This document shows, in pieces, positions 16,715-22,270 of a stretch of 64,000 nucleotides of DNA (the stretch's first letter is position 1; every line of letters starts with the position of its first letter). The DNA comes from Escherichia virus TH47. The notes under the pieces are model-generated. The model ran no database searches and had not been told where the DNA came from. It saw only the letters and a program-made list of their open reading frames with translations. The DNA lies in sequence record MT446416.1, one strand, 5' to 3'. Made by a program: the position numbers and the translations under genes.

Positions 16715-17509
16715 TTAAATTACATACGGTTTATAGTAATGAATCTCGTTTGCGATTGCAGTGAAGACTTTATTATTAAATCTTTCACCATAATCACGAA
16801 GTGATTCACCTTCTTCGCTTTCAATGAAGTAATTATATACTGGTAGACGTGCGTTGTCAACACCTATAAATGATTTCATGTAAATTTGTACTAAACGATT
16901 CATTCCTTCATTTAAGCATTGCACCTCAAAGTGCTTGATACCTTTGTCTAAATGTTTGAATGCATTAATGATACCACGTTTAAAATCACGCTGCATAGTA
17001 CTGAATAAATTCTCAGGGAACACGGTAATAGGTGACATTGATTTAAGAATGTATGTATCTTTGGCATTCTTAATGTACTCAATAAAGCAGTAGTTAACGT
17101 CCGGCTCAATTGAACGATCCGCGTTATGATACCAGTGTTTAAACTCACTGTACTCAGCAAACTTATGCTGGCGTAATGCGTTACAATCCTCACACAGTGC
17201 AGTTATGTTCTCTTTATCATTACCGCCCTGGAGACAGTCCAGTACATTATGGTCTAACGTCATGCGTACAAGGCGTTTACCTTTAAGTACATAAGGTCTG
17301 AATTTATAACGGTCTTTAGTACTGTGCTTATGTAAAGTGAATACCACATTGGATTCACCACAACAATCACATTTAAAGCCATCACGTGACATTACATGAA
17401 TGAGTTTTCGAGTATTTGGGCCGAACTCAGATTTAGTAATGTTGCCGACAATTTCTGATGGGTCGTAGTATTTTGAATTCCGGCGAATCAATTCATCTAT
17501 AGTGCTCAT
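16715..17509 (-). CDS. HNH endonuclease (264 aa)
   Basis: CDCCGE...LTLDHNVLDCLQGGNDKENITALCEDCNALRQH: Cys pairs plus a D-H..N..N HNH core. Confidence 0.7.
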   Translation of the reverse strand: MSTIDELIRRNSKYYDPSEIVGNITKSEFGPNTRKLIHVMSRDGFKCDCCGESNVVFTLHKHSTKDRYKFRPYVLKGKRLVRMTLDHNVLDCLQGGNDKENITALCEDCNALRQHKFAEYSEFKHWYHNADRSIEPDVNYCFIEYIKNAKDTYILKSMSPITVFPENLFSTMQRDFKRGIINAFKHLDKGIKHFEVQCLNEGMNRLVQIYMKSFIGVDNARLPVYNYFIESEEGESLRDYGERFNNKVFTAIANEIHYYKPYVI

Positions 17510-18552: not shown

Positions 18553-18558
18553 CTAAAT
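18519..18558. repeat. 13-nt direct repeat TTTTATTCTAAAT x2 (18519-18531, 18546-18558)
   Basis: Read directly; the second copy spans the stop codon of the AP2/HEG-like gene. Confidence 0.7.
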
Positions 18559-19185
18559 TTTACTTAATGACAAAGTAATACGTCCATTAAGTAAATCATC
18601 GTTTAAAACATCAATTCTACGTTGTAAACCTTTTATTACACCATCTGACACACTATTATTATATTTTTTAATAATATCAGAAAGATGTTCTTTTTTGGCT
18701 AATTGCCATTTTGCATGAGCTTCTTCAGGTGTGGGAAATGCACCCAAATGATATTTTTTCTTATTTTTGTAAATTTGTGCATAATATGGATTTTTGTATT
18801 CAAAACTCATATTTTTTTTAGGTATATGATAACAAACACCAAGTGGTTGATTTTTATTATTTTTGTCAATGATACACATGTTTATTTCATTTGGTACAAA
18901 TGAACACGTTTCAGGAGAATACATTTTTTTATTACCGTCGATTAAATCTTTATCTAATTCATAACCATCTTTGTAATTTGATATATACCATTCTTTAAAT
19001 TTAGAGTATGTTTTCCATTCATCACATATAATAACTCCTATATATGTTTTATGAGTTTCTTGATACTTTTCAGAATAACATCGTTTTATCATATCTTTCC
19101 ATGTATAATAAACTTTACTATAAACACTTTTTTTTGTGGAATCACCTTTAACATCATTGATTCCAAAACCATATACCAATTTCAT
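18553..19185 (-). CDS. AP2-domain, homing-endonuclease-like DNA-binding protein (210 aa)
   Basis: YYTWKDMIKRCYSEKYQ..Y.GV.ICDEWKTYSKFKEWY, then KKYHLGAFPTPEEAHAKWQLAKKEH (AP2-like). Free-standing between a terminator and the ORF-free segment. Confidence 0.55.
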   Translation of the reverse strand: MKLVYGFGINDVKGDSTKKSVYSKVYYTWKDMIKRCYSEKYQETHKTYIGVIICDEWKTYSKFKEWYISNYKDGYELDKDLIDGNKKMYSPETCSFVPNEINMCIIDKNNKNQPLGVCYHIPKKNMSFEYKNPYYAQIYKNKKKYHLGAFPTPEEAHAKWQLAKKEHLSDIIKKYNNSVSDGVIKGLQRRIDVLNDDLLNGRITLSLSKI

Positions 19186-19246
19186 ATTAAATTCCAATTA
19201 TGGTTATCATACTAACATTGTATCACACTTTCTAAATTTGTCCCAT

Positions 19247-19273
19247 AAAAAAAGGGCTGACAGAAGTCAACCC
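19247..19273 (-). terminator. intrinsic terminator (cassette copy 5, UUCU loop)
   Basis: GGGUUGAC-UUCU-GUCAGCCC plus U7 on the minus strand. Confidence 0.75.
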
Positions 19274-19280
19274 TTTAATC

Positions 19281-20246
19281 TTAAAAATCTTCGAACTCAT
19301 AACCTTTTGTCTTAACCATCTTACGCAGTCGTTCCATTGCTTCAGAGTACTTACGGTGCAATGAAGAACGAGCAGTCATGACCTTACCCTTCTCATCTTC
19401 AAAACCACTCTCAATGATTTCTCGTAGCGTTTCTGGTTCAGAATAAGAACCAATACCATGTACACGTTCAATCAATTCACGGTCTTTGGCAGATAGGTTA
19501 CTCATCATTTCTGCAATACTTTGTACCAGTGGGGTACTGACAGTTTCTACGCCTAAGTTGTAATCAGGTTCAACTGAAGTAACAATGTCAGATAATGTAC
19601 TTTCTGAATCATTACTCATTTTCATATTCAATGCTACATAAGTGTTATTGTAAGTTAGACAATTCTTAACGTGTTGAATCTCAATACCAGTCTCTTTTGA
19701 CACCATCTCAGGAGTTGGGTATTTACCATGTTTCCTTTGATACTCTTCAACACAACGTTTCACATAAATGTTATTAACACTCATATAACGTGGGAAATGC
19801 ACTAGATAATTAGCATCTGCACTTTCGTTATAGATTGTCATGTACACAGTTGTTGTTGCATATGTAATGAACTTAACATTTTTGGTAGTGTCGAACGTAT
19901 GAATTGCTCGCATTAAACCTTCAACACCATAAGAAATCTTATCTTCAAATGGGATAAAACATGTACATTTACGTGCAACACTTACTACCATTGGATAGTT
20001 GTAGCGAACCAAAAGGTCAATGTTCTTTTCAACGTCAATACCATCACGCACTGCTTGGATGAGCATTTCATTCGTTATACCTTTAGGGCGAGTTAAACTG
20101 ATACCTGTTTTTGGTTTCTCAAACTTGTGACCGTCATGTTCTTCTTCATCAACCGAATCTAGAGCCTCTAAGACGTTGACTTCTTCACTAGCAAAACACT
20201 CATCCAGTACTTCTTCAAAAATTGCATTTAAATCAAGCTTTTTCAC
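19281..20246 (-). CDS. sigma-70 family RNA polymerase sigma factor (321 aa)
   Basis: Region-2-like LVRYNYPMVVSVARKC...YGVEGLMRAIHTFD..KFITYATTTVYMTIYNE. Region-4-like LSAKDRELIERVHGIG...TLREI...RSSLHRKYSEAMERLRKM. Confidence 0.8.
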   Translation of the reverse strand: MKKLDLNAIFEEVLDECFASEEVNVLEALDSVDEEEHDGHKFEKPKTGISLTRPKGITNEMLIQAVRDGIDVEKNIDLLVRYNYPMVVSVARKCTCFIPFEDKISYGVEGLMRAIHTFDTTKNVKFITYATTTVYMTIYNESADANYLVHFPRYMSVNNIYVKRCVEEYQRKHGKYPTPEMVSKETGIEIQHVKNCLTYNNTYVALNMKMSNDSESTLSDIVTSVEPDYNLGVETVSTPLVQSIAEMMSNLSAKDRELIERVHGIGSYSEPETLREIIESGFEDEKGKVMTARSSLHRKYSEAMERLRKMVKTKGYEFEDF

Positions 20247-20268
20247 TTACTTCTCCTAATGAATGAAA

Positions 20269-20766
20269 TCAAAAACGGTATACATTAATATTATCATCGG
20301 TATAGATATCATGGTTATGAACATCCATGAAGGTATCAAATACCTTATCAAGAAGAGTATTATACTCTTCATGTAATGCTGCATCAAGCATGTATTCACC
20401 ACCACTACCCATAAAGAATGTATAATCATTATGGAGATAATCAATCTTCTTGGTAAACTTACCCTTATTAATGATTAAGTGAATGATGTAATCTTTTGAC
20501 ACAAGAACACAGTGACAACTCGCCTTGCGGTCTGGTATCACAGTCTCTTGTGAAATCAAGTATCTCAGTACTTTGTTAATTTCACTAACCTCACCGCAAG
20601 CACTAAACAGTCGGTCGTGTACATACAATGTTTTTTGTGAAACTACACCATAACTAAGTTTTGGCTTCAACGGGAATAGGTTCAAAAATGAACGCTGCTC
20701 AGTTGATGTCACTTTTGAATCAGTAAGTAATACTCCCAAGCGTTTATCAATATAAACAGTTGTCAT
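20269..20766 (-). CDS. HslV/proteasome-beta-like Ntn hydrolase (165 aa)
   Basis: N-terminal MTTV (Thr nucleophile position). GVLLTDSKVT, KTLYVHDRLFSACGEVSE and FMGSGGEYM resemble E. coli HslV [30 protein letters not shown] and AIGSGGPYA (from memory). Confidence 0.55.
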   Translation of the reverse strand: MTTVYIDKRLGVLLTDSKVTSTEQRSFLNLFPLKPKLSYGVVSQKTLYVHDRLFSACGEVSEINKVLRYLISQETVIPDRKASCHCVLVSKDYIIHLIINKGKFTKKIDYLHNDYTFFMGSGGEYMLDAALHEEYNTLLDKVFDTFMDVHNHDIYTDDNINVYRF

Positions 20767-20767
20767 A

Positions 20768-21187
20768 TTAAACCTTATCTAAAAATTTAGCATAGATATA
20801 AAATTCTTTATCGTTGAATACATTAATTCTAATATCGAAGCGTTGAAGTGTATTCATGTATAATGAACTTTTTAAATAAAAATACAATGCAACAAATTCA
20901 GATATATGCATATTCTTTTTATTATTACATAAATTCTTTAGCATTTTAATGCTATCAAAATCATCTTTATCATATCTGTACTGGAAAAAATTGTATCTAT
21001 TTGAACGGCACTCATAGATGAGAAGGGCCATTATATCAATACATGCTTGAGATTTACAGTACTTATTCAATACAGGGTAATCACCAGTACATAATGCTAC
21101 GAAGATTTTATGTGCAAGTGTTGCTTTGCCTTCAATCGTATAATAGCCAAAAAATTTAATGATTAAGTAATGTATAAATCTAAGCAT
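20768..21187 (-). CDS. hypothetical protein (139 aa)
   Basis: ORF track. Confidence 0.65.
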   Translation of the reverse strand: MLRFIHYLIIKFFGYYTIEGKATLAHKIFVALCTGDYPVLNKYCKSQACIDIMALLIYECRSNRYNFFQYRYDKDDFDSIKMLKNLCNNKKNMHISEFVALYFYLKSSLYMNTLQRFDIRINVFNDKEFYIYAKFLDKV

Positions 21188-21192
21188 TGGAT

Positions 21193-21453
21193 TTAGAATT
21201 TCTCCGAAATTACAAGTGTATCATCATAGTCATCAGCAACGGAGTTCAGTACTTCCAAATTACTTTCACCAGAAATACTTTGTACTTCGTTCAAAAGATA
21301 GTTTAGATCAACAGTTGTTACTTTTTCTGAATCAAACACACAGAAAGTCAATTCAGCGTTTGGACAGATCTTCTTCAGATTATCAGCAACAACTTGTTTG
21401 AAGTTAAAAGATGGGGAAGCAACCAGGTTAACTGCAACGAGAATAGATTTCAT
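21193..21453 (-). CDS. hypothetical protein (86 aa)
   Basis: ORF track. Confidence 0.6.
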   Translation of the reverse strand: MKSILVAVNLVASPSFNFKQVVADNLKKICPNAELTFCVFDSEKVTTVDLNYLLNEVQSISGESNLEVLNSVADDYDDTLVISEKF

Positions 21454-21527
21454 AATGTTTTCCTTTTTAGCTGATAATTAAATTAGGAGCACATTGTACT
21501 CCATGTTATTGGTTAAGTCAAATACTT

Positions 21528-21779
21528 TTAGATACCGAGTACTGAATTCAATTCTTTACGCTTGTTATATGAATCAGATTCAAACTTGCTTTTCTTATTG
21601 AAAAGGGATTCGATATCCTTATAGATAGCTTCGATGGATTTAGTTACAACCCATTCGGATTCCTGAAGCATAGCTTGAAGACGTGCGTACTCAACTTTGA
21701 TAGTACTGCGAAGTTCTTCACAAGCTTCTTCGTTCTTAATTAGTGCTTCACTAAGTTCTTTGACCTTATCGATGTTCAT
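21528..21779 (-). CDS. hypothetical coiled-coil-like protein (83 aa)
   Basis: ORF track; heptad-like charged sequence. Confidence 0.55.
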   Translation of the reverse strand: MNIDKVKELSEALIKNEEACEELRSTIKVEYARLQAMLQESEWVVTKSIEAIYKDIESLFNKKSKFESDSYNKRKELNSVLGI

Positions 21780-21838
21780 AAGTTCCTTACCATTTCCTAG
21801 TTTTGATGTAATAATTATATATCTCTCAATAACTCACG

Positions 21839-22270
21839 TCAACTGTTTTCCGTACCTTTCTCTGCCATTTTGGTGATGTGCCATTTGAGTACTGATTTGT
21901 GTACCATAAAAAATGTGAATGCAAAGACTGTAATGGCTGCTGAAGTAACACTATTAGATAAAGACCCAAGTTGGATGTTAGTACCTAAAATAACAATAAA
22001 TGGATACAACACAATAAATCTACTGTAAGGTTCGTCTCCAGTATCACGGATAAATACAAGCCTTTCATGATCAGTATCCATTGTGACAATTACAATTGGA
22101 AAGAACATAAGTGCAGACATAAGAGCAATACCAATTTGTGCTACATTGGAAATTGTAAACCACAAAGGATTTAAACCATATGAAATGTTATTTTCAGTAC
22201 AGTAATATCCGAATGTATTGAATGTACAAACTAAAAATACAAAAATGCAAATCTTATTGTATGCCCTCAT
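21839..22270 (-). CDS. multi-pass membrane protein (143 aa), paralog of the next gene
   Basis: Four hydrophobic segments; shared ..ER/RRLVFIRD/LLFVKVFG.. loop. Confidence 0.65.
   Translation of the reverse strand: MRAYNKICIFVFLVCTFNTFGYYCTENNISYGLNPLWFTISNVAQIGIALMSALMFFPIVIVTMDTDHERLVFIRDTGDEPYSRFIVLYPFIVILGTNIQLGSLSNSVTSAAITVFAFTFFMVHKSVLKWHITKMAEKGTENS

Follow-up and report, generated by a model that had tools for sequence, protein, structure and literature searches.

Two adjacent genes on the minus strand of a 64,000-nucleotide (nt) stretch of Escherichia virus TH47 DNA (MT446416.1; this whole stretch is referred to as the window) encode a 165-amino-acid (aa) protein resembling peptidases of the proteasome/HslV type and, immediately downstream, a 321-aa RNA polymerase sigma factor of the sigma-70 family. 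Both open reading frames (ORFs) lie where a preliminary description of the sequence had placed them (20269-20766, 165 aa, beginning MTT; 19281-20246, 321 aa), and the spacer between them, given there as 23 nt, measures 22 nt. Megablast identified the source as an Asteriusvirus-type Escherichia coli jumbo phage, with 97-98% nt identity to Ecwhy_1, WPEC3, EC.P1 and fEgEco12 and ~80-82% to the PBECO4/121Q group. The pair and its spacer are as follows.

20269..20766, minus strand: predicted proteasome/HslV-like peptidase of the Ntn type with an N-terminal threonine, 165 aa, ATG start, MTT N-terminus, without propeptide and without helix H2, phrog_24804.
20247..20268, minus strand: 22-nt spacer between peptidase and sigma genes, with an AGGAG ribosome-binding site (20257-20253) 6 nt before the GTG and without a terminator-like hairpin.
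19281..20246, minus strand: sigma-70-family factor, RpoD/RpoS-like, 321 aa, GTG start, assigned from Pfam, phrog_351, NCBIfam RpoS, PDB SigB and orthologue alignment.

Profile searches placed the 165-aa protein in phrog_24804, a family labelled 'unknown function' (E 1.3e-86), with a secondary match of residues 1-130 to phrog_1040, 'peptidase HslV family' (E 4.2e-6). A word-indexed search returned 11 clusters of relatives, and an exhaustive profile search covering 1.84 billion cluster representatives returned 17 representatives (E up to 0.001). The gene was present in 51 database records, all of them jumbo-phage genomes or phage contigs. For further comparison 28 family members were aligned, which are 165-188 residues long and extend down to 19% identity with the window protein. 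Seventeen of these matched phrog_1040 (best 7.8e-18), and the bridging members P0024, P0026 and P0031 scored better against phrog_1040 than against phrog_24804. Profile-profile comparison of the core family with a phrog_1040-type set gave a probability of 98.7% (E 1.8e-16 over 151 columns), with which reciprocal hmmsearch matches agreed. On sequence grounds, the phrog_24804 family of the 165-aa protein is a sister of phrog_1040, and the protein is not a core member of the latter.

Direct comparison with HslV itself yielded little. When the family was aligned to the single E. coli HslV sequence with hhalign, the probability was 7%, which is not significant, and the GSGG block alone was aligned; the phrog_1040-type set reached 12% against the same protein. 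Neither phmmer nor a 12-sequence profile returned anything relevant for the 165-aa protein among PDB sequences, and tblastn of E. coli HslV against phage records found bacterial-contaminant contigs only. The assignment to the HslV family is therefore based on the phrog_1040 matches, the profile-profile match and the predicted fold, and not on direct comparison with E. coli HslV.

Across all 28 aligned members, M1, T2, T3, D16, G58, G120-S121-G122 and D153 were invariant, and K45 was at least 90% conserved and invariant in the 25-member core set. The Thr, Lys, Asp, Gly and GSGG residues that the preliminary description had likened to HslV are thus genuinely conserved. An AlphaFold2 model built from the 28 diverse sequences had a per-residue confidence score (pLDDT) of 94.8 and a predicted TM-score (pTM) of 0.85, and adopts the four-layer alpha-beta-beta-alpha sandwich of the Ntn fold. 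HslV was its best structural match; the top matches were all T1-family peptidase subunits, with Z scores far above those of amidases. The order of secondary-structure elements in the model puts each catalytic residue where it lies in proteasome beta subunits.

Thr2, start of S1 in the model: equivalent to proteasome Thr1.
Asp16, end of S2: equivalent to proteasome Asp17.
Lys45, ahead of the next core strand: equivalent to proteasome Lys33.
Gly58, directly before H1: equivalent to proteasome Gly47.
Gly-Ser-Gly 120-122, before H3: equivalent to the proteasome Ser129 region, with Ser121 at the Ser129 position.
Asp153, after H4: equivalent to proteasome Asp166.

Two departures from the usual architecture are predicted, namely a long beta-hairpin formed by residues 18-41 and a single helix (60-72) where H1 and H2 normally sit, which is followed by a loop (73-83) and leaves the protein without H2. 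Foldseek searches of viral models matched proteasome-like proteins of the large phages CcrBL9, RisingSun, Noxifer, PhiPA3, RP12 and USC-1. One match among the BFVD models was a 146-aa 'Proteasome subunit beta' of Caulobacter phage CcrBL9 (E 5e-7), which is no more than suggestive as a pointer to membership among the phage proteasome homologs (PPH). Judged from the predicted structure, the 165-aa protein belongs with the Ntn proteins of the proteasome/HslV type and bears an N-terminal threonine; the preliminary Ntn/HslV reading is right at the superfamily level, the model being of the Ntn fold and its nearest matches T1-family peptidases. From the same model we infer that removal of the methionine would expose the threonine nucleophile and that the protein would have peptidase activity.

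HslV proper is the partner of the ATPase HslU, and the preliminary description had seen no HslU gene in the window. None was found there, adjoining the peptidase gene, or in the complete PBECO4-type genome ECO103 4-12-1 (OR844650.1), whose peptidase is 75% identical and which was scanned with E. coli HslU, HslV, ClpP, ClpX and Lon. The sole AAA+ match in that scan was a two-ring Hsp100 of the ClpA/B type (762 aa, OR844650.1 155206-157518, minus strand), with AAA_2 (2.4e-49), AAA_lid_9 and ClpB_D2-small domains by Pfam. A ClpP homologue of ECO103, considered as part of a proteolysis module, was set aside; it matches a 23-kDa 'prohead core scaffold and protease' of the phAPEC6 virion proteome. 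Across phage records, tblastn of E. coli HslU matched 164, chiefly jumbo phages of Erwinia and Salmonella that encode an HslU-like ATPase of their own, alongside bacterial contaminant contigs. Only four records labelled 'Escherichia' were among them, as against 32 'Escherichia' records with the peptidase.

The ECO103 scan also uncovered, unexpectedly, a second proteasome-like gene (197 aa, MTC start, OR844650.1 234180-234770, minus strand) that matches phrog_1040 at E 4e-24 and has an 88% identical counterpart in fEgEco12 (85128-85718). The family of this second paralogue was found in 197 phage records, many of them T5-like and others from Vibrio, Aeromonas and Geobacillus phages. By sequence comparison, the sigma-adjacent gene is a divergent, clade-restricted paralogue of the common phage peptidase family phrog_1040.

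The alpha ring of the 20S proteasome is contacted through the face that bears helix H2, and it is onto this face of HslV that HslU docks. Because no HslU is encoded, the modeled protein has no H2, and the H1/H2 face is the one that receives the regulator, the peptidase most likely acts without a canonical HslU-type partner. The chief alternative is that HslV-like rings of the phage protein dock the HslU of the host, either retargeting its ATP-dependent proteolysis or acting as a decoy that titrates HslU away from host HslV. Several features would suit such a role: HslV is the top structural match of the model, the full catalytic set is conserved, the Met-Thr-Thr N-terminus is identical to that of E. 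coli HslV, and a phage lineage without HslU infects a host that has it. However, the model lacks H2, a helix of the regulator-bearing face of proteasome-type rings, and the similarity to E. coli HslV is so marginal (7% by hhalign) that a conserved pocket for the HslU C-terminal tail is improbable. The second HslV-family paralogue in the same genome is no closer to HslV, and use of an ATPase is not known for the stand-alone bacterial homologs BPH and Anbu (PMC8665760). Weighing these points, we regard recruitment of host HslU as unlikely.

The 321-aa protein is, from its sequence, a sigma-70-family factor with regions 2 and 3 and an apparently divergent region 4. Pfam Sigma70_r2 (PF04542) matched residues 79-141 (E 2.4e-9; 37.3 bits, cut-off 24) and Sigma70_r3 (PF04539) residues 162-224 (E 1.4e-11; 44.8 bits, cut-off 25.3), and the whole protein matched phrog_351, 'RNA polymerase sigma factor' (E 1.8e-47). 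Sixty-seven sigma-factor sequences were matched in the PDB. The best was the SigB chain 7pp4_f (E 2.6e-17), and the top matches were group 1 and 2 sigmas (SigB, SigA, RpoS and RpoD; E 1e-14 to 1e-17). The NCBIfam RpoD, RpoS and SigB models cover most of the protein, the RpoS alignment spanning residues 79-319, with scores far below their equivalog cut-offs, which marks it as a member of the family and not as an orthologue of any host sigma.

The preliminary description had recognized regions 2 and 4 and an acidic N-terminus. The latter is borne out by 14 Asp or Glu among the first 40 residues of the translation, and region 2 by the Pfam match; region 4 appears divergent, Sigma70_r4 (E up to 1) having found no match in the protein. 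With SigB 7pp4_f, the phmmer alignment nevertheless extends to residue 308 and so takes in region 4.1 together with the first 4.2 helix ('LSAKDRELIERVHGIG..PETLREI'), and by eye the putative recognition helix of region 4.2, 'ARSSLHRKYSEAMERLR', is like 'TRERIRQIEAKALRKLR'. Just ahead of this helix, an insertion of the form D-x-K/N-G-K/N (residues 282-290) is present in all nine orthologues aligned, with D284 and G287 invariant, which suggests, at the sequence level, an altered -35 specificity. All nine also share the N-terminal motif LNLxxIxEEVLDECFxNE (residues 4-24), and a variable acidic linker is present as well; the orthologue alignment gives an extension of ~60 residues ahead of region 1.2, and the motif may be a family-specific analogue of region 1.1. 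From its N-terminus the protein comprises an acidic segment that is conserved, followed by regions 1.2, 2, 3 and 4.1; its putative region 4.2 carries the conserved insertion of the D-x-KGK type. Neither a non-Ntn fold of the 165-aa protein nor the absence of regions 2.4/4.2 from the sigma, either of which would have contradicted the preliminary description, was observed. Orthologues were found in 73 phage records that span the whole RaK2-like group, with Asteriusvirus, RaK2/K64-1, Munch, GAP32, CBB, Serratia phage BF, Yersinia phage fHe-Yen9-03 and XaC1 among the holders, and closest relatives aside they are 33-60% identical over their full length. The '-35 TGAAACG' motif of CBB and GAP32 was searched for as a lead to the promoter class of the sigma and showed no enrichment, either in the window (1 match, 2.3 expected) or across a complete Asteriusvirus genome (4 and 3 on the two strands, 2.6 expected).

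The two genes lie at the distal end of a row of five, the others encoding proteins of 83, 86 and 139 aa, between a near-consensus promoter and a terminator-like hairpin. The remaining features of this row are listed in the direction of transcription.

21814..21842, minus strand: near-consensus sigma-70-type promoter, TTGACG-17-TATAAT, 11/12 by consensus match.
21528..21779, minus strand: 83-aa ORF from the ORF listing, the first gene past the promoter; hypothetical g515 in fEgEco12.
21486..21521, minus strand: intergenic, with a weaker promoter-like TTGACT-17-TACAAT, 10/12 by consensus match, overlapping a hairpin of 7 base pairs (bp).
21193..21453, minus strand: 86-aa ORF from the ORF listing, phrog_26969 by PHROGs.
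20768..21187, minus strand: 139-aa ORF, phrog_37211, whose TAA stop (20770-20768) ends 1 nt ahead of the peptidase ATG.
19251..19276, minus strand: intrinsic-terminator-like hairpin with an 11-bp stem, five GC pairs and a T run, 5 nt past the sigma stop.

Since peptidase and sigma are enclosed by a near-consensus promoter and a strong terminator, they were read as co-transcribed early genes, and we infer from these sequence signals a single early operon that would be read by the host holoenzyme. The surroundings are of the same character. The AT-rich window, in which the GC skew is negative in all bins of 2 kilobases (kb), bears nearly all of its long ORFs on the minus strand, and its sigma-70 consensus matches of at least 11/12 numbered 37 on the minus strand and 0 on the plus strand, compared with 2.7 +/- 1.6 in Markov simulations. 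Further near-perfect minus-strand promoters occur, for example, at 25033-25006, 16860-16832, 12252-12225 and 907-880. In the ECO103 genome the same signal stands at 97 against 11 and clusters at 0-75 kb and 300-325 kb. Judging by these matches, the whole window looks like an early region densely studded with promoters. The orthologous sigma of CBB (CBB_513) has been placed in an early region with many RpoD-like promoters (PMC5259590), which is consistent with the early-operon reading here.

Just downstream of the sigma terminator lies a gene for a 214-aa HNH homing endonuclease (18553-19197, minus strand; phrog_953, E 3.5e-74). It is missing in the closest relatives, whose nt match to the window begins only at ~19216, and it looks like a mobile insertion of recent date. 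The window shares a further HNH gene, at 16715-17509, with fEgEco12 (g522).

The order peptidase then sigma is kept in RaK2, Munch, Hallingskeid and two metagenomic relatives, whose peptidases are 27-49% identical to that of the window, with varying material between the two genes.

RaK2: ORF243 then ORF244.
Munch (a Salmonella phage): genes 486 and 487, with a depositor-annotated terminator between them.
Hallingskeid: two small ORFs between peptidase and sigma.
Metagenomic relative with 45% identity: one small ORF between.
Metagenomic relative with 27% identity (L012): three genes between.

Elsewhere the two genes occur apart. CBB and XaC1 keep the sigma, including its N-terminal motif LNLxxIxEEVLDECF, without an HslV-like gene within 3 kb. 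The possibility of a hidden one was examined with three profiles against six-frame ORFs of at least 50 aa and rejected, as nothing was matched at E up to 10 within 3 kb on either side. In CBB, a stretch of 1.2 kb without an annotated gene (L024, 1294-2520) lies upstream of the sigma, between gp469 and a gene for a helix-turn-helix regulator; HslV-family profiles found no match in it. Conversely, in Vibrio phages helene and vB_CoeS_P1 no sigma is annotated within 4 kb of the phrog_1040 peptidase, and there is no sigma near the peptidase of the P0024 contig. Runs of unannotated genes of ~170-230 aa, with no Pfam match on record, follow the peptidase in two metagenomic relatives (L006, 6554-9245; L012, 1072-3073). 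Three such genes are those that part peptidase from sigma in L012, and the L006 contig ends ahead of any sigma gene.

An order that is kept inside one collinear clade, with the genes freely separated elsewhere, is more readily explained by inheritance than by obligate coupling. As far as gene order can tell, the adjacency is best explained as inherited gene order of the early region, which is a simpler explanation than an obligate functional couple. The latter would have the peptidase trim the acidic N-terminal segment of the sigma, or remove competing host sigmas, and so set when early transcription gives way to middle transcription. A precedent for the first of these is SpoIIGA, a membrane aspartic protease encoded just upstream of sigE in Bacillus subtilis, which processes pro-sigma-E; E. 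coli HslUV in turn has a role in the turnover of sigma-32. The phage genes, 22 nt apart, resemble spoIIGA-sigE in their order, in sharing what is predicted to be one transcription unit, and in the ~60-residue extension ahead of region 1.2 of the sigma, and the order has persisted while the peptidases diverged to 27-49% identity. In contrast, SpoIIGA has an unrelated fold, and the sigmas of CBB and XaC1 retain their N-terminal motif with no HslV-like gene within 3 kb at E up to 10. In several relatives the pair is interrupted by one to three unrelated genes or by an annotated terminator, the two Vibrio phages have phrog_1040 relatives without a sigma neighbour, and the conserved motif looks like a functional analogue of region 1.1 rather than a pro-sequence to be discarded. 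A functional couple therefore seems improbable to us; if true, it would give phages an equivalent of SpoIIGA/pro-sigma-E that is based on the proteasome fold and needs no ATPase. The suggestion in the preliminary description that the two genes act together has in its favor only the conserved order in one clade, and CBB, XaC1 and the two Vibrio phages separate them; the reprogramming of host proteolysis proposed there is speculative.

Very doubtful, too, is that the protein is no degradative protease at all, its fold being reused for sequence-specific ligation (as in connectase) or for hydrolysis of non-protein amides, or serving as a catalytically silent scaffold, since the invariant or nearly invariant T1-type catalytic set is complete, which counts against a silent scaffold, and the top structural matches are all T1-family peptidase subunits with Z scores much above those of amidases.

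Among known systems, the closest in description are the PPH, catalogued as a class by Fuchs et al. 2021 (PMC8665760), which along with RPC have no helix H2 (PMC8665760). As in that class, the 165-aa protein is phage-borne and of the compact group-I type, has no propeptide and has equivalents of Thr1, Asp17, Lys33 and Gly47; by secondary-structure order its model is without both H2 and the C-terminal S12/H5 elements (PMC8665760). PPHs are encoded by tailed phages or prophages, and the present gene is found only in jumbo-phage genomes and contigs. It differs from the PPH in length (165 aa, family range 165-188, compared with ~140 aa), which is due to the hairpin at 18-41, and in having a very small PHROG of its own, phrog_24804. 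The likeness to PPH (representative WP_042125023.1) is one of description. It also differs in its position in an early region beside a sigma gene, with a bona fide phrog_1040 paralogue elsewhere in the same genomes. With HslV (ClpQ) the protein shares the Met-Thr-Thr start and the set of catalytic residues, whereas it has no PF00227 or NCBIfam match, no H2, and no hslU adjacent or in the related full genome; an identification as HslV proper thus fails on several defining features.

The preliminary description had not recognized the pairing as described before. For the peptidase, prior mention exists in Fuchs et al. 2021 (PMC8665760), in the PHROGs family and in GenBank, where the gene is labelled 'ATP-dependent protease subunit HslV' in fEgEco12 and 'ATP-dependent protease' in Turkey3, beside an annotated sigma, and is hypothetical in most other records. 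HslV genes without HslU have been noted in a paper on Salmonella jumbo phages (PMC7823757), and the fEgEco12 paper leaves the protease unmentioned. RpoD-like sigmas have been described for group 2 jumbo phages generally (PMC7824862). CBB_513, RaK2 ORF244 and 121Q gp167 of this RaK2-like group are orthologous to the present sigma and share its early region rich in RpoD-type promoters. No substantive difference from them was seen, the extra HNH gene downstream of the sigma terminator being particular to the window. Our literature search found no functional study of any phage proteasome homolog and no paper on the adjacency to sigma. Phages were already known to carry both gene types, and for the sigma there is nothing new here.

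Overall, we consider it probable that the pair forms the distal part of an early operon in a jumbo phage of the RaK2/PBECO4 (Asteriusvirus) type, and that it consists of a phage sigma and a propeptide-less Ntn peptidase which lacks an HslU-type partner and owes its place beside the sigma to inheritance. Host sigma-70 polymerase would start at the consensus-like promoter and stop at the hairpin past the sigma gene. The RpoD-like phage sigma would then direct the core polymerase of the host away to phage promoters of a later class. The small threonine peptidase of the proteasome superfamily would be made without a propeptide, removal of Met1 exposing the Thr nucleophile, and may work early in infection on host or phage substrates without a canonical HslU-type partner. 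Several observations temper this account. The 165-aa protein was matched neither by Pfam PF00227 (Proteasome; E up to 1) nor by any NCBIfam model, and PF00227 touched just two of the 28 relatives, weakly. The fold is a prediction, and an AlphaFold2 model from 12 close homologues had a pLDDT of 56 and was unusable. Promoters and terminator were called by consensus matches alone, and the annotated terminator between the Munch genes indicates that co-transcription of the pair is not universal. Finally, selection for linkage could also account for a pair that has been kept at only 27-30% identity, and a functional link may exist within this clade.

The pairing itself would matter only if a functional link were shown, and the comparative evidence is mildly against such a link. 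For the peptidases, phrog_24804, until now labelled 'unknown function', gains a confident predicted fold and catalytic site. Jumbo phages of the RaK2/PBECO4 type carry two diverged proteasome-like paralogues, one of which lies in what appears to be the early host-takeover region. As easily grown coliphages, they would provide a practical system for studying the role of viral stand-alone proteasome homologs.

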